Part shown: piece after piece, positions 1-20,071 of the stretch
Layout of the letters: each line of letters starts with the position of its first letter
How positions within the stretch are numbered: position 1 is the stretch's first letter
Assembly (NCBI GenBank): GCA_963758635.1
Contig: CAVWWD010000003.1
Span: 864,001 to 928,000, forward strand
Direction of reading: 5' to 3'
DNA length: 64,000 nt
DNA from: an uncultured Candidatus Rokubacteria bacterium
GTDB lineage: Bacteria; Methylomirabilota; Methylomirabilia; Rokubacteriales; CSP1-6
The notes under the pieces: generated by a model
Database searches by the model: none
Seen by the model: only the letters and a program-made list of their open reading frames with translations
What the model was told of the DNA's origin: nothing
Position numbers and translations under genes: made by a program

Positions 1-660
1 CGACAGGTCGCGCGCCTTCGCCAGCTCGAGCGTCTCCCGGGAGATCTGATCCCGCATGCGCGTCAGCATCCGCCCGAGGATCTCCTCGGGCGTCATCCCC
101 TTCACGAGCTGGTACGTGTCCGGGAACAGGTAGCCCTCCAGGCTCTCGGCCTCGACCCCCACGCTCCGGAGGAACGCGCGGTCGTGGGCCACGCGCAGGA
201 GGTCTTCGGCTGCGGCCACCCGCTCCGACTCGACGGCGCGGGCGAGCTCGACCAGCGTCCCGCCCTCGCGCAGCAGCACGGGATGGTGGAGCACCTTGCC
301 GCTCTCGAGCAGGCGCAGCACGGTCATGGTGGTCGCGCCCTGGGGAATCTCGTACTCGCCGGCCTTGAGGCTGCGGGCGCTGCCCCTCGCCCAGGCCAGG
401 ACCACGAAGCCGAGCCGGCTCCTGATCACACCTGCCTCGTCAAGGCGCTGGACCATCGTCAGGAGGCTGAGCCGGAGCGGGATGTCGACCACCCGGGGGC
501 TCGACTGCACGGTGGGAGAGGGGGTGAACGTCCACCATGCATGGAGAGCCACGAAGACGGCCGCGAGTGCGAGGAGGAGACGAACCGCCCTCCTCCACGT
601 CAGGCCAGGCCGAGCGCCGGGCTCGACGCGGGCCTTGAGGGTCCAGGGCCGATCCGTCAT
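1..660 (-). CDS. mltG: Endolytic transglycosylase MltG (YceG family), 3' end beyond window
   Basis: Not in the ORF track. Manual translation from ATG 660 gives an N-terminal TM helix, SLKAGEYEIP and SLEGYLFPDTY motifs typical of MltG; the frame runs off the window start. Confidence 0.9.
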   Translation of the reverse strand, partial: MTDRPWTLKARVEPGARPGLTWRRAVRLLLALAAVFVALHAWWTFTPSPTVQSSPRVVDIPLRLSLLTMVQRLDEAGVIRSRLGFVVLAWARGSARSLKAGEYEIPQGATTMTVLRLLESGKVLHHPVLLREGGTLVELARAVESERVAAAEDLLRVAHDRAFLRSVGVEAESLEGYLFPDTYQLVKGMTPEEILGRMLTRMRDQISRETLELAKARDLS

Positions 661-2990: not shown

Positions 2991-5451
2991 TCACATCGGC
3001 GGCGCCTCCCCGTCCAGCGCGATCCGCTCCGTCGTGCGCGATCCCCAGCGCGTGACCCAGACGCTGACGCCGTCCGACTCCACGATCACCGCGCCATCGC
3101 GATCCGTCCGGTAGCACGCGCGCGCCCGCCGCTTGAAGCCGCGCGAGGGTCTCCGGGCGAGGGTGCTGGAAGGGGTTCCGGGCTCCCGCCGAGATCACCG
3201 CGAGCGTGGGTCGTGTGGCGGCCAGGAACGGCTCCGAGCTTCCGAAGCGGCTCCCGTGGTGCGCCACCTTCAGGACGAGGGCGGGGGCGGGGGGCCCGCG
3301 CGCGACGATCTCCTGCTCGGCCCGCCAGCCGATGTCCCCGGTGAAGAGGAGCGACACGCCGCGCCAGTCCAGCCGCATCACGAGCGAGGCGTCGTTCTCG
3401 CTGCGCGCGTCCACGTCGGTCCCAGCACGGCAACGGGCTTCGGCGTCGGGCCTTGCGCGGCCTCGTCGGCCGCGCGGGGCGCCGTGGGGTGGAGCATGGT
3501 GACGAGCGCGGATCCCATCTGGAGCCGCTGACCGGAGGCGAGCACCCGCCGGGGGGCGCCCGACGCGGCGATGGCCCGGAGCGTGTCCTCGGTTCCCTTG
3601 CCCCAGAGGCCGTTCTCCCAGAACTCCCCGACCCGGAAGTTGCGCGCGACGGCGGCGAGTCCTCCGGAGTGGTCGGGATCGGAGTGCGACACGACCACGG
3701 CGTGGAGGTGGGTGACCGGGCGGTTCCAGAGGAACGGGGCGAGGATGCGCTCTCCGACGTTGAAGCGCCCAGGGCCTCCGGGGCCGCCGTCCACCAGGAG
3801 CCGCTTCCCGTCGGGAAGCTCGACCAGGGCGGCGTCGCCCTGTCCCACGTCGAGGAAGGTCACCCGTAGCCGGCCGTCCGATGGTCGCACCCACGGCCAG
3901 AGCGTGAGCGCCAGCACCAGGAGCGCGAGGCTTCCCACCGCTGCGCGCACCGCGGCGCCGGCGCCGAGCCAGGGGAGGAGCGCGGCCGCGGCGTACCACG
4001 CGACCATGCCGAGCCAGTCGGGAGCGGGCAGGTGCACCATGGCCCACGGGACGCACGCGACCACCCAGACAGACGCCTTCAGCAGGACGACCACCAGCCA
4101 GACGAAGTTGAAGAGCGCGGAGGCGGCGAGGTCGCTGAGCAGCGAGAGCGTCAGGGCCAGGAGCCCGAGCGTGGTGACGGCGGCGGACAGCGGCACCACC
4201 ACGAGGTTGGCGACGACGCCGGCCAGCGAGAGCTGGTTGAAGTGCAGCAGCATCACCGGGGTGACCCCGGCCTGCGCGGCGAAGCTGACGGCGAGGCTGG
4301 CGGCGAGGATCCTCGGGCACCGCGCATGCGAAAGCGCGGCCGTGAGAGCGGGCGCCAGGTGGACGATGCCCGCCGTGGCGGCGAAGGAGAGGAGGAAGCC
4401 GGGGTCCCACAGGTCGCCCGGCCGCCAGGCGAGCACGGCGAGCGCGGCCAGGGAAAGCGCGTTCAGGAGCTGTGACTCGCGATCGAGCAGCACGCCGAGC
4501 AGCAGGGCGAGCCCCATGAGAGTGGCCCGCACCACGGACGGCTGGCCGCCCACGATCGACGCGAAGGCGATCAGGACGATGCCCGCCGCGACGGCGGTCG
4601 CGCGGCGAGGCAGCCGGGCCAGCGTGAGGACGAGGAAGACCGAGGACGCGAGGAGCGCCACGTTGAAGCCCGAGACGGCGAGCACGTGGTAGACGCCGGC
4701 GCGACGGAACGCCTCGTCGGTCTCGCGCGGGAGCCCACGGCGCTCGCCGAGGACGAGGCCGGCGAGCAGTGCCGCCGACCCCTCGGGCACGTGGCTGCCG
4801 ATGGTGGCGACGGCCCAGCGCTTCACCCGCACCGGCCACGGGGGCGCCTCCGGCGACAGCGGGGTCAGGCGATCGCCCCGGCCGCTCCCCACCAGGAGGA
4901 TGCCCTCGCGCCTCAGGTGGGCCGGGTAGTCGAAGGCCCCCGGGTTGCGGAAGCCGATCGGTCGATGGAGCGTGAGCTGCGCCGCGATCCGCTGGCCCGC
5001 GGCGAGCGGCGCCGTCTCGCCGAAGATCGTGACCTGCACCCGGCCCTCCGCCGGCCGCCGGCCTTCCGGCTCGATCAGCGCGTCGACGTCCAGGAGGAGT
5101 CGCGAGCGGTCCGGCGTCCACCGGATGGGCTCCTCGACGAGGACGCCTTCCACGCTCATGCGCGGGGACAGCGGCTGCATCACGAGGTGCTCGGGGAGAG
5201 GGCGGGGCGGGCGCGCCGCGCAGGGCGCCGAGTGTCGCGACGGCCCCCAGCAGGAGGGCGCTGGCCGTGCGTGACGCGCGCAGGCCGAGCGCGAGCGCGC
5301 CGGCGCCGAGCAGCGCGAGGGCGGCGCCAGAAACCCACGCGGAGGACAGCGGCAGCCAGGGCGTGGCGGCCAGGCCGGCCACGAAGGCGGCGGCCACCGG
5401 CAGCAGCGGAGCCGCGGCGAGGCGGCCTCGAATGCGTGGAGGAGGGCTCAC
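2991..5451 (-). CDS. comEC: Competence protein ComEC/Rec2 (frameshifted at about 5190, 3420 and 3112)
   Basis: Joined frames give GVYHVLAVSGFNV, FLDVGQGDA, SHSDPDHSGG, LFTGDI, LKVAHHGS and YRTDRDGAV; stop TGA at 2991-2993. Confidence 0.9.
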
Positions 5452-8166: not shown

Positions 8167-10614
8167 ATGCCGCGCCGAAAGAGCACACCGCCCCGAAGGA
8201 GCACACCGAAGAAGACGCCCGGGACGAGTCCTGCCACGACGGTTGCCAGGACCACCGCACGGCCCACGGTGAGCGGGCCGAAGAGCGGCGTCGATGCGAT
8301 CACCGACGCGGCCACCGCGAAGATGGCGGGAACGGAGGCCGTCGCCGCCGCCTTTCCGTTCAACGCGGCAAAGCCGTCGGAATTCGGGGCGGGGGCCCAC
8401 CGGCCAGGGGCCAGACCGTCGAGCCGCCGCATCCCAGTGTGGCGGGGAGCACGCTCACCGAGATCAACGCCTCGGACAAGGTCGGCAGCGGCAATCCGCC
8501 CGCGAGCTTCAACCCGGGCAATGCGTCGCTCGATCGCGTCCGCGTCGATTCGGGCGGACGCGCGCTGACGACCAACCAGGGCGTGCCGGTCGCCGACAAC
8601 CAGAACTCGCTCAAGGCCGGTCTGCGCGGGCCCGCCCTGCTGGAGGATTTCATTCTCCGCGAGAAGATCACGCACTTCGACCATGAGCGCATCCCCGAAC
8701 GCATCGTCCACGCGCGCGGCTCGGGCGCGCACGGCTACTTCGAATGCTACGAGCCGCTGACGCGACCTCACGCGCGCGTCCATCTTCGCCGAAGCCGGCA
8801 AGCGCACGCCGGTGTTCGTGCGCTTCTCGACGGTCGCCGGCGAGCGCGGCTCGACCGACACCGCGCGCGACGTGCGCGGCTTCGCCGTCAAGTTCTACAC
8901 CGACGAAGGCAACTGGGATCTCGTCGGCAACAACATCCCGGTGTTCTTCATCCAGGACGCGATGAAGTTCCCGGACGTCATCCACGCGGTCAAGCCCGAG
9001 CCGCACCACGGCATGCCGCAGGCGGCCTCCGCGCACGACACGTTCTGGGATTTCGTCTCGCTCATGCCGGAGACCACCCACATGCTGATGTGGGTGATGT
9101 CGGACCGCGCGATCCCGCGCAGCTACCGGATGATGCAGGGCTTCGGCGTCCACACATTCCGCTTCGTGAACGCGGCCGGCGAGTCGCGTTCGTCAAGTTC
9201 CACTGGAACCCGATCGCGGGCACGCATTCGCTGGCGTGGGACGAGGCGGTCAAGATCTCCGGCGCCGATCCGGACTTCCACCGCCGCGACCTGTGGGAAG
9301 CGATCGAGGCCGGCGCCTATCCCGAGTGGGAGCTCGGCATCCAGGTGTTCACCGAGCGAGGAGGCCGAGCGGTTCACCTTCGACGTGCTCGACGCGACCA
9401 AGCTCATTCCGGAAGAGCTGGTGCCGCTGACGCCGATCGGCCGCATGGTGCTAAATCGCAACCCCGACAATTTCTTCGCCGAGACCGAGCAGGTCGCATT
9501 CTGCACCGCGCACATCGTGCCGGGGCTCGACTTCAGCAACGATCCGCTGCTCGCCGGCCGCATCCACTCGTACGTCGACACGCAGATCTCGCGGCTGGGC
9601 GGGCCGAATTTCCACGAGATCCCGATCAACGCGCCGGTCGCGCAGGTCCACAACAACCAGCGCGACGGCATGCATCGGCAGGCGATCCCCCGCGGCCGCG
9701 TCGCCTACGAGCCGAATTCGCTCGGCGGCGGCTGTCCGTTCCAGGCCGGCGCGCAGGGCTTCATGTCGTTCCCGCAGCCGATGGAAGAGCACAAGGTGCG
9801 CGGCAAGCCGGAGAAATTCGCCGAGCACTACAACCAGGCGACGCTCTTCTGGAACAGCCAGACGCGACGATCGAGAAGCAGCACATCATCCGCGCGTTCC
9901 GCTTCGAGCTCACCAAGGTGCAGACGCCGCGGTCCGCGAGCGCGTCGTGGCGCAGCTGCGCAACGTCGCCGAAGAACTGGCGACAAGCGGTGGCCGACGG
10001 CCTCGGCATGACCGAGCTGCCGGATCCGCTGCCGAAGGTGCTCGCAGCGCGCCCCGAAGCCGGAAGTCGCAGACGTCGCGCGGCGCTGTCGCTGTTTGCC
10101 CGGCCCGGGCACGGACGGCATCAAGACCCGGCGCGATCGCGATCCTGGTCGCCGACGGGTCGATGGCGCGGCGGCCGCTGCGCATGCACGAGGCGCTGGC
10201 GCGCAGGGCGCGGTGCCGCGCTTCGTCGGCGTCAAGCTCGGCCGCGTGCAGCCAGCGCGAGCGGCGAGCTCGATCGAAGTCGAGGTGTCGATGGAAGCCG
10301 CACCGCGCGGTGGTGTGGGACGCGATGATCGTGCCGCGACGGCGAGCGCGCGAGCAGACGCTGGGCGCGAGCGGCCACGCGCTCGAATTCCTGAAGGACC
10401 AGTATCGGCATTGCAAGCCGATCCTGCTCATGGGCTCGGCATCGGCGCTGCTCGATGCGGCCGGACATTCCGCCGGCGCTCCCCTCGGGACGAAGCGGAT
10501 CCCGGACTGCTCCAGTTCGGTGCGCGATAGAGCCGCGGCCGCCTGCCGGCCTTCATCGAGGCGCTCGCCAAGCATCGACATTTCGAGCGCGAAACGGATC
10601 CGCCACGGGTGTGA
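8167..10614 (+). CDS. katE: Large-subunit catalase HPII (multiple frameshifts)
   Basis: [65 protein letters not shown]-terminus [27 protein letters not shown] before ATG 8167. Confidence 0.92.
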
Positions 10615-10661
10615 TCGGGGGGAGTCAGGCGGACGCGCGAGATGCCGTGTTGGAGCCCGGA

Positions 10662-11099
10662 TCAGGGCCGCTTCGGCCCATCGGGCGCGATCGCCTCGCC
10701 GGCGTCGGCGGGCGTGCCCGGCCGACCGAACTCGAAGGCGAAACCGAAGCCGAACCAGCCGGCGCTATCGGGCTGGGTGGCGCCGCGCGAGCCCACGTCA
10801 GTGTTCGGTGACGTCCAGCCCGCGATGCCGGCGCGGCCGGCGGCCGTCTCGCCGGACAAGGGCGCGATGAACGCGGGCGCGTGTCGCACCCGGGGCGTCT
10901 CGCGATAGCGATCGGCGTCGCTCGGCCGCGACACGTCCTTCGGCTCCACTTCCGGTGCGATCACGAATGGCCGGGGTGGACGCTCGGAGGGCGGAGCTTT
11001 GAGCTCATCTCGGGCCCACGCGCCGGCCGCGAGCCCGAGCACCGCTGCGAGCGCGACAGCGCTTACGACAAGACTCTTGATACCGCGTCTGGTATTCAT
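10662..11099 (-). CDS. Hypothetical exported protein
   Basis: Signal peptide MNTRRGIKSLVVSAVALAAVLGLAAGAWA; no recognisable domain. Confidence 0.6.
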   Translation of the reverse strand: MNTRRGIKSLVVSAVALAAVLGLAAGAWARDELKAPPSERPPRPFVIAPEVEPKDVSRPSDADRYRETPRVRHAPAFIAPLSGETAAGRAGIAGWTSPNTDVGSRGATQPDSAGWFGFGFAFEFGRPGTPADAGEAIAPDGPKRP

Positions 11100-12363: not shown

Positions 12364-13480
12364 ATGTTCCCTTCGGGCCCGCTCCGGTCCGTCATGAAGA
12401 AGGTGGCGTCCCGCCTGCCGTACGTCGGCCGGCTCATGGCCGAGCGCACGATCATCGCCGGCGAGCGCGATCGGATCGACGAGGAGCGCGTGGCGGTGGC
12501 GCGGGATCGCGACCGCATCGCGGCGGAGCGCGACGGGCTCGCGAGCGAGCGCGACCGCCTCCTCGCCGGGCGCGATGAGCTCCTCGCCGACAACGCCGCG
12601 CTCAGGATCCAGGTGGGCGCGGTCGAATCGGAGCGGGACCGCTACAAGGCGTGGATGCCTCCCGGGCACTACTACTCGCCCGTGCCGTCGCTCGACGAGG
12701 TCCGCGCCCGCGAGGCCCAGATCTTCGGCCCGCCGCCCGCGACCCTGCCGGGCGTGGACCTGAACGAGGAGGAACAGTGGGCGCTCCTCGACACGCTCGC
12801 CCCGTACATCCGGGAACAGCCGTTCGGAACGCGGCGTCGCGCCGGGCAGCGCTACTGCTTCGACAACCTCTACTACTCCCACTACGACGCCGTCTTCCTC
12901 TACGCCATGATCCGCCACCTGCGGCCGCGGCGGATCGTCGAGATCGGGTCCGGCCATTCCTCGTGCGTCATCCTCGACACCAACGACCTGCACTTCGCGG
13001 GCGCCATCGCCTGCACCTTCGTCGAGCCCCATCCCGAGGCGCTCCTCGCGCTCATCCGCGAGACGGATCGCGAGCGGGTGGAGATCGTCGCCCGCCCGCT
13101 CCAGGACGTGGACGCCGCGCGCTTCGAGGCGCTCGAGGCGAACAACGTCCTGATCGTCGATTCCACCCACGTGTCGAAGACGGGGAGCGACGTGAACCGG
13201 CTCCTCTTCAACGTCCTCCCGCGACTCCACGCCGGGGTCCGCGTGCACGTCCACGAACGTCTTCTTTCCCTTCGAGTACCCGCGCGCGTGGGTGCTCGAG
13301 GGGCGCGCCTGGAACGAGGCGTACCTGATGCGGGCGTTCCTGCAATACAACGCGGCGTTCCGCATCGAGCTCTTCAACACCTTCCTCGACGCCACGGACC
13401 GGGAGCGGTTCCTCGCCGCGGCGCCGCTCTGCGTCGAGACGAGCTATCCGGGAGGAAGCATCTGGCTTCGTAAGGCGTAG
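12364..13480 (+). CDS. Class I SAM-dependent methyltransferase with N-terminal coiled coil (frameshift about 13258)
   Basis: PPGHYYSPVP, RPRRIVEIGSGHSS and DSTHVSKTGSDV; after the shift FPFEYPRAWVLEGRAWNEAYLMRAFL...GGSIWLRK. Confidence 0.85.
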
Positions 13481-13624
13481 GAGCGGGCGTCTCCGGCGGG
13501 CGAGCGCGCGCGGTACAGGCGCATCCGGCTCGCGTGGCAGCGGGGCGCTGGCGTGTGACGGCGGCCGCGCGCCGGTGGTACCATCCGGACGGCGGCCAGC
13601 CCACTGACGAGAGGAGCGATCCCC

Positions 13625-14803
13625 ATGGACCTCAACTACTCCGCCCAGGAGACCGCGTTCCGCGACAACGTCCGCTCGTGGCTGTCCGCGAACCTGCCCA
13701 CCGACCTCCGCGACAAGGTGACCAACTACCAGGAGCTGACCAAGGACGACCTCCTGCGCTGGCACAAGATCCTCGCGAAGAAGGGCTGGATCGCTCCGGA
13801 GTGGCCGGAGGAGTGGGGCGGCACGGGCTGGAACGTGGTGCAGCGCTACATCTTCGAGGAGGAGTGCGGCTACGCGGGCTGCCCGCCGCTGGTCGCCTTC
13901 GGCCTCCGGATGTGCGCGCCGGTGCTGTTCCGGTTCGGCAGCGACGCCCAGAAGAAGCAGTACCTGCCGCGGATCTACCAGGGCGAGGACTTCTGGTGCC
14001 AGGGCTACTCGGAGCCGGGCTCGGGCTCGGACCTGGCCTCGCTCAAGACGCGCGCGGTGCGCCAGGGCGATCACTACGTGGTCACCGGCCAGAAGATCTG
14101 GACGACCATGGCGCATCACGCCGACTGGATCTTCTGCCTGGTGCGGACGGACGCGAGCCAGGCCAAGCGCCAGGAGGGCATCTCGTTCCTCCTGATCGAC
14201 ATGCGGACGCCCGGCATCACGGTGCGGCCGATCATCCTGATGGACGGCGGCCACGACGTGAACGAGGTGTTCTTCGACGAGGTGAGAGTGCCCGTCGAGA
14301 ACCTGGTCCACGAGGAGGGGAAGGGCTGGACGGTGGCCAAGCACCTCCTCGGCTACGAGCGCATGGGCAGCGGCCGGATCGGCGCGTCCAAGCGCGAGCT
14401 GGCCACGCTCAAGACGCTGGCGGCGAGCCAGACGAAGGACGGCAAGCCCCTGATCGAGGATCCGCGATTCCGCGACCGCCTCACGCGCGTGGAGGTGGAG
14501 CTGATGGCGCTGGAGATCACCAACCTCCGGTTCCTGGACCAGCTCCGCGGCGGCCGGCCGCCGGGCGCCGAGGTGTCCTTGCTCAAGATCAAGGGCACGG
14601 AGATCCAGCAGTCCCTCACCGAGCTGATGATGCAGACCGCGGGGCCCTTCGCCCAGGCCTTCCGGCCGGTGGACAGCATGGACTTCGACTACTTCACCTC
14701 GCGGCTCGCCGCGCGCTACTGCAACATGCGCAAGACCACGATCTACGCGGGCTCGAACGAGATCCAGCGCAACATCATCTCCAAGATGACGCTCGGCCTG
14801 TGA
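13625..14803 (+). CDS. Acyl-CoA dehydrogenase (PimC-like large subunit)
   Basis: WCQGYSEPGSGSDLASLKT, GQKIWTT and TIYAGSNEIQRNII motifs. Confidence 0.92.
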   Translation: MDLNYSAQETAFRDNVRSWLSANLPTDLRDKVTNYQELTKDDLLRWHKILAKKGWIAPEWPEEWGGTGWNVVQRYIFEEECGYAGCPPLVAFGLRMCAPVLFRFGSDAQKKQYLPRIYQGEDFWCQGYSEPGSGSDLASLKTRAVRQGDHYVVTGQKIWTTMAHHADWIFCLVRTDASQAKRQEGISFLLIDMRTPGITVRPIILMDGGHDVNEVFFDEVRVPVENLVHEEGKGWTVAKHLLGYERMGSGRIGASKRELATLKTLAASQTKDGKPLIEDPRFRDRLTRVEVELMALEITNLRFLDQLRGGRPPGAEVSLLKIKGTEIQQSLTELMMQTAGPFAQAFRPVDSMDFDYFTSRLAARYCNMRKTTIYAGSNEIQRNIISKMTLGL

Positions 14804-14813
14804 CGGGCGCGCC

Positions 14814-15950
14814 ATGAACTTCGAGCTCTCCGACGAGCAGCAGCTCCTCGCCGACAGCCTCAAGCGCTTTCTCGCCAACGACTACACGTTCGACGCGCGG
14901 GCGAAGATCGTCGCCTCTCCCAAGGGCTGGAGCCCGGAGATGTGGGGGAAGCTCGCCGAGCTGGGCCTGGCCGGCCTGCCGTTCTCTCGCGACCACGGTG
15001 GCTTCGGCGGCGGCGCGGGCGACGTGATGGTCGTGATGGAGGCGATCGGCGAGGGGCTCCTCGTCGAGCCGTACCTGGCCACCGTGGGCCTGGGCGGGCA
15101 GTTCGTGGCGCGAGGCGGCTCCGCGGCCCAGCAGAAGAAGCTCTTGCCGCTGGTGGCGGAGGGCCGCTGCCGCATGGCCTTCGCCCACCTCGAGCGCGGG
15201 GCGCGCTACGACCTCGCCCACGTGGGCCTGCGGGCCCGGCGCGAGGGCGACGGCTTCGTCCTGGACGGCACCAAGCACGCCGTCCTCCACGGCGGCGCCG
15301 CGGACGTGCTGGTGGTCTCGGCGCGCACCGCGGGAGCGGACACCGACGCCCAGGGGCTCAGCCTGCTGCTGGTCGAGCGCGAGTCGCCGGGCGTCACGGT
15401 CAAGGAGTTCCGCACCATCGACGAGCTGCGCGCCGCCGACATCACCTTTGCCGGCGTGCGGGTGTCGCGCGACGCGCTGGTCGGTCTCGAGGGCGCGGGG
15501 CTGCCCCTGGTGGAGGAGGTGGTCGACTACGCCACCGCGCTCCTGTGCGCGGAGGCGGTGGGCTGCATCCGCTACGCGAATGACACCACGCTCGAGTACC
15601 TGAAGACGCGGCGGCAGTTCGGCGTGCCGATCGGCAGCTTCCAGGCCCTGCAGCACCGCATGGTGGACATGGTGATCACCTACGAGCAGGCGCGCTCGAT
15701 GGCCTACCTCGCCTGCGTCAAGGTCGACACCGCGGGCGCGGCGGAGCGCCGGCGCGTGGTCTCCGCGGCGAAGGTGAAGCTCGCCGACGCCTGCCGCCAC
15801 ATCAGCCAGGAGTCCGTCCAGCTCCACGGCGGCATGGGGATGACCGACGAGCTCAAGGTGAGCCACACGTTCCGCCGGCTGACCATGATCGGCCAGACCT
15901 TCGGCGACGCCGACCACCACCTCGAGCGCTTCGCCGGCGCCGGCGTGTGA
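14814..15950 (+). CDS. Acyl-CoA dehydrogenase (PimD-like small subunit)
   Basis: RRQFGVPIGSFQALQHR and VQLHGGMGMTDE; paired with the upstream ACAD. Confidence 0.9.
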   Translation: MNFELSDEQQLLADSLKRFLANDYTFDARAKIVASPKGWSPEMWGKLAELGLAGLPFSRDHGGFGGGAGDVMVVMEAIGEGLLVEPYLATVGLGGQFVARGGSAAQQKKLLPLVAEGRCRMAFAHLERGARYDLAHVGLRARREGDGFVLDGTKHAVLHGGAADVLVVSARTAGADTDAQGLSLLLVERESPGVTVKEFRTIDELRAADITFAGVRVSRDALVGLEGAGLPLVEEVVDYATALLCAEAVGCIRYANDTTLEYLKTRRQFGVPIGSFQALQHRMVDMVITYEQARSMAYLACVKVDTAGAAERRRVVSAAKVKLADACRHISQESVQLHGGMGMTDELKVSHTFRRLTMIGQTFGDADHHLERFAGAGV

Positions 15951-15952
15951 CG

Positions 15953-16402
15953 ATGCTCGGCCGCCGCGCCTTCCTCGCCGGCGCCATCGCCGCCGCGCTC
16001 GCCGCGGCTCTGCCGGCGCGCGCGACGGACAAGCCCACGGTGACCGTCTACAAGTCGCCCACCTGAGGCTGCTGCACGGCGTGGGTGGGCCACCTGCGCA
16101 CGAACGGCTATCCGGTGAAGGCGATCGACACCGACGACCTCCCGCCCGTCAAGCGCAAGCACGGCGTGCCCGCGACGATCGAGGGGTGCCACACCGCGCT
16201 GGTCGAGGGCTACGTGATCGAGGGCCACGTGCCCGCCGACCTGATCGACCGGCTGCTGCGCGAGCGGCCGAAGGTGGCCGGCCTCGCGGTCGCGGGGATG
16301 CCCGCGGGCTCGCCGGGCATGGAGACGTCGGGCAAGCCGGAGCCGTACAAGGTCTGGAGCTTCGACCGGGCCGGCAAGACCGCCGTCTACGCGACGCGGT
16401 AG
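15953..16402 (+). CDS. DUF411 metal-binding protein with Tat signal; in-frame TGA (codon 38) read as probable selenocysteine
   Basis: MLGRRAFLAG...VYKSPT-TGA-GCCTAWVGHL...GCHTALVEGYVIEGHVPA...GMPAGSPGME. The TGA at 16064-16066 sits at the first Cys of the family CGCC motif. Confidence 0.85.
16073..16100 (+). promoter_or_regulatory. Candidate bacterial SECIS element
   Basis: Stem UGCACGGCGUGG / CCACCUGCGCA with a 5-nt loop GUGGG beginning with G, 18 nt after the UGA. Confidence 0.6.
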
Positions 16403-17052
16403 GGGGGGCCGGCACGCCGCATCTGCGTGCCCGCCGAGTCTGCTGCCGGGGTGATCGAAGATGCCTCGGTGCCGTAGGTGAGACGCTCGATCCCTCAGCC
16501 ACCCCTGCCGCGCGAGCCGCTAGGCCCAGCTCACAGGACTCAATGCAGCCTCGGAAGGCTCGAAGTCCACATTGCGCATACGAGGTCTTCGGGTGTCCGA
16601 CCAGCGACACGGATACTTTCCTGACGAGCCGTCCCGGTGTCAGGGATCGGCGTTTCGACCGGTCTCGTAGACAACCTCGCCCTTCTGCTCGAGATCCCAG
16701 AGGTGGTGTGCCAACAGCTCTGCGACCTCTCTCGTATCAGCGTCGAGTGCCAGGAGGGCTGGGGTATGGAGCTGCGTATGAACACCCCAACTCCGTCGCC
16801 GTGTCGAGGATGATCGCGTCCATGTACGTGAGGTCAGTGTATCCAGCGACTCACCCACCGCCCCTGAAAGCAGCAGAAGTGGTCCCGGGTGCCACCGGCA
16901 TCCCTGATGATCATCCTTCCTCGCGCCACCGATCTCTGAGGGGGCTTCCGATGGGGCTCGCCCACGTACCGGAACGCATCCAGGGATTCGTCTTGCACAT
17001 CAACGATCGACAGCGCGGCCGCTGGCCAACAGGATCGATTCCTTCCATACGA

Positions 17053-18276
17053 CTATGCGTTCGGCCCGTTCGCCGGACGCGGTTCGAGCACGATTCCAGC
17101 CAGCGCAACAATGCAGAAGGCCGCACTCGCGTAAAAGGTGAAGGACGCCCCGAGTTGATCCCACAACAGGCCGGCCAATACGCTCGCGAACAGCATGGTC
17201 AGACCGGCAAGTAAATTGAAGAAGCCGAACGCCGTGCCGCGAAGGTCTGCCGGCGCGGTCTCGGCAACCAGGGTTGCCAGCAAACCCTGAGTCATTCCCA
17301 TGTGCAAGCCCCAAAGAAGGATGCCGACAAACACCGTGCCCAGGGAGCTGCTGTATGCGAGCGCAAGATCAGCAGCGATTAACACCGCCAAGCCGATCGC
17401 CAGGAGCTTCGCGCGGCTCACGCGATCGGAGAGCTTACCGAATGGATAGGCGGACACGGCATAGACGATATTCATCGCAACCAGGACCAACGGTATCCAT
17501 GCAATCGGCAGCCCGCCTTGCTGGGCGCGCAGCACCAAGAACGCCTCGCTGAACCGCGCCAGGGTGAAGACGGCTCCGACACAGACCACCCACCAGTACG
17601 CCTTGCTCAGTCGCTTGATCTCGCACCAGTGGATGGGATTGACGCGCTTGGCGGGCGTCACTCGCTCAGGCTCCTGAACGCCGACCAGGAGCAAGCCAGC
17701 GGCGAGAAAGCCTGGAATGACTGCCACCCAGAAGACGACGCGGAAATCGTTCGACCAAAGCAGCATCAGCCCGATTGCCAGCAGCGGGCCGGTGAAGGCA
17801 CCCACGGTGTCCAAGGACTGGCGCAGCCCGAATGCCGCTCCACGCAGGGCAGGGGGCGCAAGGTCCGCCACCAGCGCATCGCGCGGCGCGCCTCGAATTC
17901 CTTTACCGATGCGATCCAGGAAGCGGGCAGTGAGAACCATTCCCGTGCTGGCGGCGATGGCGAACAGCGGTTTGCTGAGCGCGCCGAGCCCATAGCCGAT
18001 GACCGCCAGCATCTTGCGGCGTCCAAGGTAGTCGCTCAAGGTGCCGGAGAACACCTTCACGATCAGTGCGGTCGCTTCGGCCACGCCCTCGACTAGGCCC
18101 ACGGTAAAGGCGCTCGCCCCAAGTGCGGTGAGCATGAATACTGGGAGCAGGCTGTGAATCATCTCGGACGAGATATCCGCCAGCATGCTCACGAAGCCGA
18201 GAACCCAAATGCCCGTCGGGATCCGCAGCGAGGCGCTCTTCGTGGAATGGTTCATGCGGCGCGTCCTCATGAGCAT
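17053..18276 (-). CDS. MFS transporter
   Basis: GTLSDYLGRRK and DRIGKGIRGAPRDALVAD; about 12 TM segments; start may be ATG 18255. Confidence 0.92.
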   Translation of the reverse strand: MLMRTRRMNHSTKSASLRIPTGIWVLGFVSMLADISSEMIHSLLPVFMLTALGASAFTVGLVEGVAEATALIVKVFSGTLSDYLGRRKMLAVIGYGLGALSKPLFAIAASTGMVLTARFLDRIGKGIRGAPRDALVADLAPPALRGAAFGLRQSLDTVGAFTGPLLAIGLMLLWSNDFRVVFWVAVIPGFLAAGLLLVGVQEPERVTPAKRVNPIHWCEIKRLSKAYWWVVCVGAVFTLARFSEAFLVLRAQQGGLPIAWIPLVLVAMNIVYAVSAYPFGKLSDRVSRAKLLAIGLAVLIAADLALAYSSSLGTVFVGILLWGLHMGMTQGLLATLVAETAPADLRGTAFGFFNLLAGLTMLFASVLAGLLWDQLGASFTFYASAAFCIVALAGIVLEPRPANGPNA

Positions 18277-18594
18277 CGCCCGTACGAATAGCCGCCAATC
18301 CGGCCGACTCGGCCGCGCGTCGAGCGGTCTGATCGACGGCCATGCGTGCGTCGCTTCTTCGAGGTGGAATCGGGTTAGAGTCGTGGAATCGGATTCATCT
18401 CAATCCTGCGTCTGACGACACCTGCGCATCCGTTCCTTCAACCGAGAGGAAGGATCCTTCCGCTGCTGCCGGTAGCGGCCGCGCCCCAGATCCAGCGGCG
18501 CAGCCCGGAGCACCGAGGAAGTGGCCCCCACTCGCTGTTTCCGTCGCGTCACTCTGGGGGGTCGCTCCAGGGGCGAAGGGCGCTTCCCGTGCGG

Positions 18595-20071
18595 TCAGCT
18601 CTCGTCGTAGCCGGCGGGCTTCCGGAAGCCGCCTACCTCGCGCGCGACGAGCGCGGCGAAGCGGATCGGCGTCAGGTCCTCCAGGTAGGGACCGATGGCC
18701 TGGAGCCCTACCGGCAAGCCGCCGCGTGAGATCCCGATCGGGAACGCGGTGGCCGGCTGACCCGCGACCGTCGAGACGGACGGATACGCGAGGCCGTGAA
18801 GATACGGCACGGTCCGGCCGTTCACGTCGAAGGTGAGCCGGAGGTCGCTGTCGTCCATCGGCCACGTGCGCTCGATGTGCGGGTAGGCGAGCACGTTCAT
18901 GGCCGGAGCCAGCAGCACGTCCCAGTCGCGGAAGAACGCCCGCCAGGCCTGCCGGTACATCTCGCGCTGGCCGCCCCAGAGGACGAAGTCGCCCGGCGCG
19001 CCCGCGAGACCACGGAGATGCGCGTGGGAGAACTCGTCGTCGGGTTTCCGCCACATCTCGATGCGCCGGCGGCGCGCCTCCTCGTCCACGCGCGCGCTCG
19101 TCATCGCCGACAGCAGCGACCGGTACAGCTGGTGATGCGACGCGGTGATCGCCGAGGAGGTCGGGCTGGGCCTCCTTGACGGTGGCGCCGAGACGGCCGA
19201 GGCGCGAGGCCAGCTCCTGCTGCGCCACCACGATCTCGTCGTCGACGGGCAGCCAGGGGATGGCCGGCAGCACCGCCACGCGGAAGTCGGCGAGGCGCTC
19301 GTGGCGCGGCCGCGGCAGCGTCACGCGCCAGGCCACGTCCTCGCCGACCTCGGGGCCGGCCAGCACGGAGAGCGCCAGCTCGAGGTCCTCGGCGCTCCGG
19401 GCCAGCGGCCCCTGCACGCCCATCAGGCCCACGGAGTTCGGCATGGGCGGGATCGGGAACTGGCCGCTCCGGGGCAGGAGCGTCTCGCTCGGCCGGTGCC
19501 CGTAGACGCCGCAGAACGCCGCCGGCACCCTGATCGAGCCGCCGATGTCGCTGCCGACCTCGAGCGCGGAGAGCCCGGCAGCGATGGCGGCCGCGCTGCC
19601 GCCGCTGGATCCCCCCGGCGTGCGGCCGAGGTCCCACGGATTGTTCGAGCGCCCGTAGATGGGGTTGGCCGATTGCCAGTCCGCGAGCATGGGCGGGACG
19701 TTGGTCTTGCCGAGCAGCACCGCCCCCGCCGCGCGCGTGCGGGCGACGGCGGGGGCGTCGTGCTGGGACACGAACCCGCGCCAGTCCGGGACGCCGGCCG
19801 TCGTGGGTAGGCCGGCCACGTTGAACGACTCCTTGATCGTCATGGGCAGGCCGGCCAGCGCCCCGCCCCCGCCGCGGGCCGCGCCCTGGTCGGCGGCGCG
19901 CGCCTGCTCGCGGGCGCGCGTGAAGTCGCGGACGGGCACGGCGTTGAGGCGGCCGTCGTGGCGCTCGATGCGCCGGATGTAGAGCTCGGTGAGGTCGCTC
20001 GACGTGACGTGCCCGGCGCGCAGGGCGGCCAGGAGCTCGGTGGCGCTCGCGAACGGATCCACTGTGCTCAT
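18595..20071 (-). CDS. Amidase signature family enzyme (frameshift about 19140)
   Basis: GLPMTIKE, GKTN, TPGGSSGGS and GSDIGGSIRVPA; C-terminal GLPVGLQAIGP in frame 18595..19104. Confidence 0.9.

Follow-up and report, generated by a model that had tools for sequence, protein, structure and literature searches.

A candidate selenocysteine form of the copper protein CopG (DUF411) in a Rokubacteria genome

Introduction

In the window studied here (a stretch of 64,000 nucleotides from an uncultured Candidatus Rokubacteria bacterium), a short open reading frame of 105 codons stands where a longer frame, opening further upstream at an ATG, is interrupted by one TGA. The locus raises the question of whether this TGA is a genuine end of translation, an error in the DNA sequence, or a codon for selenocysteine (Sec), and, in the last case, what the residue could do in the protein. 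A sequence-only reading had proposed a periplasmic UxxC selenoprotein of the DUF411 family, exported by the Tat pathway, followed by a SECIS-like hairpin, in a family not known as a classical selenoprotein family. Here, the reading frame, the state of the codon across homologues, the selenocysteine machinery of the genomes, the hairpin and the gene surroundings are considered together.

Gene structure and reading frame

The positions of all features are collected in Table 1. The start codon lies where the sequence-only reading had placed it, 2 nt beyond the stop codon (TGA, 15948-15950) that ends an acyl-CoA dehydrogenase gene, and the two genes are therefore probably co-transcribed and translationally coupled. 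From this ATG the frame reads MLGRRAFLAG...VTVYKSPT-TGA-GGC-TGC-TGC, and its translation meets a single internal stop, so the stretch around the TGA was rightly described as being in frame with the rest of the domain down to the terminal TAG. The read-through product has the N-terminus MLGRRAFLAGAIAAALAAALPARA and, later, TDKPTVTVYKSPT-U-GCC. It had also been predicted that gene callers would truncate such a gene. This is what has happened, both in the ORF list and in public protein sets, where P0002, P0009 and P0020 are the same 105-residue stubs, all beginning VGHLR. These three are the nearest entries in a large protein collection (98% identity for P0002, 86% for P0009 and P0020), and the full-length entries of that collection, with 60-68% identity, carry Cys where the window gene has UGA. 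A scan of 13400-17200 found no promoter-like or terminator-like sites, and the short ORFs of the gap 16403-17052 had no Pfam match.

Table 1. Features of the candidate CopG gene and its hairpin, with copper-type neighbours of related Sec-form loci
Feature	Position, column pair or locus	Strand	Basis or remark
Acyl-CoA dehydrogenase gene	14814..15950	+	ORF list; directly upstream of the CopG ATG
Candidate Sec-form CopG/DUF411 CDS	15953..16402	+	149 codons; UGA is codon 38; TAG at 16400-16402
Predicted signal peptide, residues 1-24	15953..16024	+	RR is R4-R5 (15962-15967); A-R-A cleavage-type end
Predicted selenocysteine codon (in-frame UGA)	16064..16066	+	Alignment with the first Cys of CxCC
U-G-C-C motif, equivalent of the CopG CxCC copper-cluster motif	16064..16075	+	Alignment to CGCC of 6WIS
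SECIS-like hairpin	16077..16102	+	Core 16079-16087 with 16091-16099 (9 bp); loop GGC 16088-16090
105-aa ORF, GTG start	16085..16402	+	Reported by gene callers instead of the whole gene; without signal peptide and metal motif
Cys79-His80 (CHT motif) of the DUF411 domain	16187..16192	+	Invariant in 23 rows; kept in 6WIS
G-M-P-x-G-S-P-G-M with Met116 and Met123	16295..16321	+	Invariant in 23 rows; GMPVGSPGM in 6WIS
Hairpin column pair	19-39		Paired in Sec 19/30, Cys 15/68
Hairpin column pair	20-38		Paired in Sec 17/30, Cys 10/68
Hairpin column pair	21-37		Paired in Sec 27/30, Cys 27/68
Hairpin column pair	22-36		Paired in Sec 30/30, Cys 47/68
Hairpin column pair	24-34		Paired in Sec 27/30, Cys 38/68
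Hairpin column pair	27-31		Paired in Sec 20/30, Cys 29/68
Multicopper oxidase neighbour	L092, L129		Sec-form loci
P-type ATPase neighbour	L087, L111		Sec-form loci
SCO1/SenC neighbour	L043		Sec-form locus
PCYCGC protein neighbour	L108		Sec-form locus

Family, motif and structural model

The read-through protein matches the Pfam family DUF411 (PF04214) with 89 bits against a gathering cut-off of 27 (E 1.6e-25) over residues 77-123, and no NCBIfam model matches it. The similarity to the CopG structure PDB 6WIS is longer (E 2.8e-28 over residues 30-147) and sets U38 opposite the first C of CGCC; further along, GMPAGSPGM of the window protein aligns with GMPVGSPGM of 6WIS. The two remaining cysteines of the motif, C40 and C41, are unchanged throughout the 23 aligned rows. 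An AlphaFold2 model calculated from this 23-row alignment has a mean pLDDT of 88.9 and opens with a beta-alpha-beta arrangement; since strand beta1 (30-34) is followed by a helix (39-50), residue 38 falls at the N-cap or N-terminus of that helix. A thioredoxin-like fold is predicted for the protein.

To our knowledge, CopG is one of the few known proteins with a cysteine-bridged multinuclear copper cluster. Passages of the review PMC7558416 describe the CopG-like proteins as periplasmic and as an aid to copper resistance in anaerobic conditions, with a tetranuclear Cu cluster held via CxCC and two adjacent methionines. The role proposed there is the oxidation of Cu(I) or the hand-over of copper to other proteins, and the genes are said to be often linked to copA, cusCBA or cueO (PMC7558416). 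By analogy with the site outlined in those passages, Met116 and Met123 are taken to be the two methionines that complete it in the window protein. Because the motif of the window protein is the copper-cluster motif of CopG, a role as metal ligand is more likely for the predicted Sec than one in a UxxC redox centre. The UxxC claim of the sequence-only reading divides: its selenocysteine is supported by the alternation and the machinery described below, and a metal ligand is preferred to its redox centre.

Presence of the TGA in the DNA

A sequencing or assembly error could have created the TGA, and the assembly is indeed prone to indels, as it lacks a C at 16622 that contigs from three runs share, and several of its genes are split in frame. 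However, the contigs of runs X1 (records 1, 6) and X2 (record 12) cross 16064-16066 and show no listed difference at these positions, so the codon carried by the assembly is also that of the runs. The two runs belong to two studies, and the assembly may itself derive from one of them. Moreover, the assembly errors seen are indels and not substitutions, and within the order a further fourteen genomes carry this TGA. An erroneous TGA is accordingly so improbable that we give it practically no weight. From the RNA run X9 came no more than two short contigs, within 16039-16099 and each differing at 5-6 places; because these probably come from relatives, no claim on expression is made from them.

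Alternation of TGA and cysteine codons across homologues

A homologue was present in 22 of the 61 genomes of the same order (26 matches, one a C-terminal fragment), and the 25 matches that cover the motif have TGA in 15 cases and TGC in 10, all at one codon. A wider scan of 185,579 species' genomes gave 596 related stretches, and the best 80 of these 596 were retained, with TGA in 17 and TGC or TGT in 63 at the codon of the window's UGA. When the order and the best 80 of 596 are joined and 3 duplicates removed, 102 distinct homologues remain, 31 with TGA and 71 with TGC or TGT, which is the alternation expected by the sequence-only reading; the ratio is uninformative for the whole family because the best 80 of 596 were picked by their likeness to the query. 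According to their record titles, the Sec-form sources among these best 80 of 596 include Rokubacteria, Binatia, Gemmatimonadota, Chloroflexota, Burkholderiales, Vicinamibacterales and 'delta proteobacteria'. The strand VTVYKSPT before the TGA is kept in frame among the homologues, and two genomes (G041 and G046) each hold both a Sec and a Cys form. With a TGA at this one codon shared by 31 distinct homologues, the recurrence is far beyond chance.

This recurrence bears directly on whether the gene is a pseudogene, in which a nonsense mutation at the first Cys of the motif would have left a functionless 105-residue remnant (16085-16402) or no product at all. Gene callers and public protein sets treat the gene in just this way, and selA and selD of the same genome appear frame-split in the assembly. 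On the other hand, decay would hardly place the same TGA in 31 homologues of several phyla with both flanks in frame, nor in 16 of the 25 rows of the order's clade, and the remnant would be without the signal peptide and the entire metal motif. We therefore consider a pseudogene highly improbable.

The history of the codon was followed in a quick maximum-likelihood tree of 99 rows and 123 columns, with the Sec/Cys column masked, from which L045, L048 and L049 (fragments or frameshifted), L050, L052 and L053 (duplicates) and L060 (pattern missed) were left out. In this tree, in which many forks are unresolved, at least nine state changes are needed, three of them forced by well-supported branches, and shuffled labels average 26. 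The window protein belongs to a clade of 25 rows (SH-aLRT 96) with 16 Sec and 9 Cys forms, and eight of the nine Cys rows make up one nested clade (SH-aLRT 97). This arrangement suggests a change from Sec to Cys in the nested clade, although its direction depends on the root.

Selenocysteine machinery

The genome encodes the machinery that the sequence-only reading would lead one to expect. The tRNA-Sec scores 67.7 bits against a cut-off of 47 and is given by ARAGORN as a SeC tRNA with anticodon tca; selB scores 375.6 bits and is adjoined by selA in two pieces (404.9 and 149.6 bits), and selD is found with 212 bits and an N-terminal piece. Both selA and selD contain one frame change each in the assembly. 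We think that these splits are assembly indels, judging from the extra C at 16622, from the catalase and amidase genes of the window, which are likewise split, and from the state of the assembly (a completeness score of 87% over 12 contigs). The formate dehydrogenase alpha subunit (FdhA) of the genome reads QARI-U-HSS with the UGA at the classical site. Furthermore, 6 kb past the window there are exported thiol-redox genes, one TlpA-like (WATW-U-PTC) and one Prx-like (FTAT-U-IKE). A reassignment of TGA in the genetic code was rejected because the upstream gene and most homologues terminate in TGA.

Within the order, selB is present in 54 of the 61 genomes, and its co-occurrence with the Sec form does not discriminate there because it is near-universal; other phyla were used instead. 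Among 14 related genomes with the Sec form, selB was found in 12, and G052 has selB in two pieces as well as tRNA-Sec. Neither selB nor tRNA-Sec was found in G009, a genome of 95% completeness with the Sec form. In the other phyla, selB was above the cut-off in five of five Sec-form genomes tested (L077, L087, L092, L122 and L108) and in none of the first five cultured Cys-form isolates (L063, L076, L083, L102 and L112). The contrast between Sec and Cys forms outside the order is thus clean but small.

The downstream hairpin

Bacterial SECIS elements, as Zhang and Gladyshev reportedly described them in 2005, are hairpins just 3' of the UGA with a G early in a small apical loop. The hairpin noticed by the sequence-only reading exists, and its loop, GGC, starts with G, but the proposed spacing of 18 nt did not stand, as the stem begins 10-12 nt and the loop 21 nt after the UGA. 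The core pairs GCG-UGG-GUG with CAC-CUG-CGC, and in the folds two outer pairs around a bulged A16100 extend it to its full length. Judged from this one sequence, the hairpin does not exceed chance: the single-sequence 45-nt fold has a z of -0.87, with 37 of 200 GC-matched shuffles at least as good, and the 71-nt fold has a z of -2.64. Nothing above noise was returned by an Rfam scan of 15900-16450; Rfam, as far as we know, has no general bacterial SECIS model.

The comparison across homologues, which ignores relatedness, included 30 Sec forms, all of the 31 but L057, and 68 of the 71 Cys forms. With the register fixed at 9 bp, the Sec forms have 82.6% of their cells paired, a value reached by none of 500 column shuffles, versus 59.3% in the Cys forms, where 103 of 500 shuffles reach the value. 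The mean number of pairs is 7.43 in Sec forms and 5.34 in Cys forms, and the Mann-Whitney p of 5e-8 for this difference overstates the case because the rows are related. The inner 5-6 bp are dictated by the conserved W-V-x-H-L codons and fold in the Cys forms too; column pairs 23-35, 25-33 and 26-32 form in both sets because they are fixed by the codons for Trp, Val and His. The two sets differ in the outer pairs (GCG/CGC, U-G), which are Sec-specific, and in the closing pair, with columns 19-22 paired in 57-100% of the Sec forms versus 15-69% of the Cys forms. G occupies the first loop position in 28 of 30 Sec forms versus 50 of 68 Cys forms, and the second in 16 of 30 versus 7 of 68. Two changes restore pairing at amino-acid-changing sites: GUG/CAC becomes GCG/CGC in L040 (U-A to C-G) and AUG/CAU in L092 (G-C to A-U).

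Codon usage in the stem points the same way. Within the order, 14 Sec forms show a synonymous entropy of 0.39 bits at the stem codons versus 0.885 bits at 78 other codons, and nine Cys forms show 0.686 versus 0.718 bits. The stem codons of the order's Sec forms use GCG for Ala in 11 of 11 cases and CTG for Leu in 12 of 14 (CTA in 2, CTC in 0), and the loop codon is the most variable one, with 1.78 bits; the order's Cys forms have mostly CTC for Leu and mostly CGG for Arg. The conservation of the hairpin among Sec forms, another point raised from the sequence, is thereby borne out as enrichment and synonymous constraint, with only the outer pairs specific to Sec. The genome's own fdhA has an 8-bp hairpin from +14 with the loop at +22 to +24, and on the same numbering the CopG hairpin has its stem from +13/+15 and its loop at +24 to +26. 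Thus, it is probable that the hairpin starting 10-12 nt downstream helps Sec decoding.

The signal is not universal in the fixed 9-bp register, because eight Sec forms pair at six or fewer of the nine positions; among these eight, the four Chloroflexota forms, L108 and L120 pair at 4-5 and may use a different structure. RNAalifold found no consensus structure over all 30 Sec forms, and subsets gave only the 6-bp core. For 10 Sec forms of other phyla and for 4 Chloroflexota forms it drew an outer stem that pairs the UGA region with about +39 to +48. This outer stem, together with the inner pairs that the protein sequence imposes, would suit an arrangement in which Sec is inserted but 16077-16102 provides none or only a part of the signal, and SelB reads another structure such as a longer stem that includes the UGA region. 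Such an arrangement is unlikely, although it deserves some weight, in view of the Sec specificity of the outer pairs and of the spacing, which matches that of the genome's own fdhA hairpin.

The UGA could instead be read through without Sec, by near-cognate Cys or Trp insertion or by other recoding, which would yield an ordinary CopG at low efficiency. A single base separates TGA from TGC, the hairpin does not reach significance in this one sequence, and it is missing from some Sec forms in the fixed register. However, the genome holds a full Sec gene set, selB separates the five Sec-form genomes of other phyla from the five Cys-form isolates, the synonymous constraint on the stem codons is restricted to the TGA forms, and TGA serves as an ordinary stop in neighbouring and homologous genes. 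We consider read-through of this kind very unlikely. With high probability, the UGA at 16064-16066 is decoded as selenocysteine by the SelB/tRNA-Sec system of the genome.

Export and gene neighbourhood

The Tat consensus is S/T-R-R-x-F-L-K. Residues 3-9 of the predicted protein, G-R-R-A-F-L-A, followed by AGAIAAALAAAL, fit this twin-arginine consensus; the AlphaFold2 model has a helix at 4-17 with low pLDDT, and 11 of the 23 rows aligned from the order share the RR. The genome also carries a TatC gene (213.6 bits). Tat export and cleavage after A-R-A are predicted on the basis of the RR motif and the TatC gene.

Upstream, the gene is preceded by two acyl-CoA dehydrogenase genes, and on its downstream side an MFS transporter gene runs convergently towards it; no copper genes were found beside it in the window. 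In related Sec-form loci, copper-related neighbours occurred at 6 of the 29 loci scanned (88 ORFs; Table 1). Among the matches listed for the Cys-form loci (38 of 58 loci, 95 of 145 ORFs), at least eight had copper-type neighbours, namely multicopper oxidase, CopB, P-type ATPase, and RND pump or cation-efflux proteins. The case for a copper role thus comes from homology and from some of the gene contexts in the family, and not from the window locus.

Proposed function of the selenocysteine residue

In the mechanism that we consider most likely, the hairpin recruits SelB with Sec-tRNA(Sec) as the ribosome reaches the UGA at 16064-16066, and Sec is inserted there. The precursor would leave via the Tat pathway by means of its RR motif, and removal of the signal peptide behind A-R-A would give a mature protein of about 125 residues that adopts a thioredoxin-like fold with Sec38 at the N-terminus of helix 1. 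In this protein, Sec38, Cys40 and Cys41 with Met116/Met123 would together coordinate a multinuclear copper cluster of the kind described for Pseudomonas CopG, and a selenolate would act in place of the thiolate when Cu(I)/Cu(II) is handled or passed on in the periplasm. Compared with a thiolate, a selenolate is softer, more acidic and more easily oxidised.

By analogy with CopG, Sec38 may be a direct ligand of the copper cluster, an assignment that we make tentatively. We also hold with reserve, as a real possibility that falls somewhat short of a probable one, the broader proposal that the Sec38 selenolate bridges the coppers of a CopG-type Cu4 cluster in soil bacteria of at least six phyla, the Sec form being the majority form in Rokubacteriales and possibly ancestral there, with a later return to Cys in one subclade. 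If this is true, a copper-selenium cluster protein exists in nature and ties selenium supply to periplasmic copper handling. The two genomes with both forms would offer a natural Sec/Cys pair, which could show the effect of selenium on periplasmic copper redox chemistry or transfer.

Comparison with known systems

In our judgement this is a real and conserved selenoprotein candidate, well supported by comparative evidence, in which a known copper protein would be varied by a known recoding mechanism. That the family lies outside the classical selenoprotein families, as had been supposed, agrees with the catalogues searched. DUF411, CopG, PF04214 and UxCC are absent from the family table in the main text of a 2026 review (PMC13188914). 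DUF411 and CopG are likewise absent from the main texts of BSepDB (PMC13326102; its family Table S2 lay outside the search), deep-Sep (PMC12013277) and a 2022 review (PMC9312934), and DUF411 from that of the GOS study (PMC2398784). A full-text literature search returned no paper joining DUF411 with a selenoprotein, and no paper on CopG, selenocysteine and copper was relevant by its title or abstract. Within the catalogues searched, the Sec form of CopG is apparently uncatalogued. Because the gene is cut to a stub, no NCBIfam model matches it and the catalogues searched omit the family, the selenoproteomes of soil phyla such as Rokubacteria, Gemmatimonadota, Binatia and Chloroflexota are undercounted.

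The closest known proteins are CopG of Pseudomonas aeruginosa (PDB 6WIS/6WJE) and CutG of Rhodobacter capsulatus, which share the family (DUF411, PF04214) and, by prediction, the fold. The window protein has in common with CopG the x-G-C-C after strand 1, CH(T), GMPxGSPGM, the small size and the (predicted) export. In contrast to CopG, the window copy has a UGA, predicted to encode Sec, as the first cluster Cys; it also has a twin-arginine signal and adjoins acyl-CoA dehydrogenase genes with no copper genes nearby. It resembles bacterial selenoproteins with Cys homologues in the in-frame UGA opposite Cys, in the hairpin and in the presence of SelA, SelB, SelC and SelD. Passages of PMC13188914 name as metal-related selenoproteins the SO_0444 family Cu/Zn efflux transporter (UxC), CopZ-like 2Fe-2S proteins, MbdU and a putative mercuric-reductase-like UxxU protein. 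The candidate is similar to those named there in having Sec within a Cys-rich metal-binding motif and a predicted metal-handling role, but they are of other folds and families, and none of those named is a CopG-type copper-cluster protein (PMC13188914). A listed small thioredoxin-like UxC selenoprotein has a UxC motif and a size class like those of the window protein, whereas the window protein belongs to PF04214 and itself has no PF13192 match up to E 10.

Sec and Cys Forms of the CopG Gene

Both the Sec form (TGA at the first Cys codon of the CxCC motif) and the Cys form (TGC or TGT) of the CopG gene occur together in G041 (loci L028 and L046) and in G046 (L034 and L047), the two genomes found to carry both, which belong to the same order. 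We hypothesize that the two forms may act as a selenium-dependent backup pair. The hairpin in the register of the window gene (9 bp, 16079–16087 with 16091–16099) was absent from the four Chloroflexota Sec forms (L087, L088, L096, and L111), in which 4–6 of the 9 positions were paired. For these four sequences, RNAalifold predicted an alternative structure, in which the UGA region (+0 to +9) would pair with +39 to +48. In-frame UGA codons were also observed in two exported thiol-redox genes past the window, in the contexts WATW-U-PTC and FTAT-U-IKE, with hairpins starting at +12 and +15.

Probable Assembly Frameshifts and the Region Downstream of CopG

In the assembly sequence of the window's own genome (G000), the reading frame of each of the Sec-machinery genes selA and selD changes once outside the window, at about 237,037 of contig C10 and about 51,247 of contig C3, respectively. 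The sequence around both sites is GC-rich and non-homopolymeric, and the frame switches are probably assembly indels. Within the window, the contigs of three sequencing runs (X1, X2, and the RNA run X9) agree on an extra C behind position 16622, and thus one base seems to have been dropped there by the assembly. The split catalase gene and the partial amidase ORF are more signs of frameshift errors. The CopG stop codon is separated from the convergent MFS gene by a 650-bp stretch (16403–17052), in which neither an ORF matching Pfam nor a terminator-like site was found.

Coordinates of split, partial, and UGA-containing genes
Feature	Location	Observation
Catalase gene	window 8812–10870	split across at least two frames
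Piece holding the Catalase domain	window 8812–10011	one part of the split gene
Piece holding Catalase_C	window 9947–10870	another part of the split gene
Amidase ORF	window 18395–20071	profile positions 1–279 of 445 only
Two exported thiol-redox genes with in-frame UGA	G000 C3, about 933,900–935,500	start about 6 kb after the window ends

Gene Neighbors of a Sec Form

The Sec-form CopG at locus L108, from a 'Deltaproteobacteria' MAG, is adjoined by two genes (L108:3418–3960 and 4142–4807). The product of one belongs to the PCYCGC family (PF13798), listed in a 2026 review as the selenoprotein 'CYCXC family' (PMC13188914), and that of the other is a multiheme cytochrome c.
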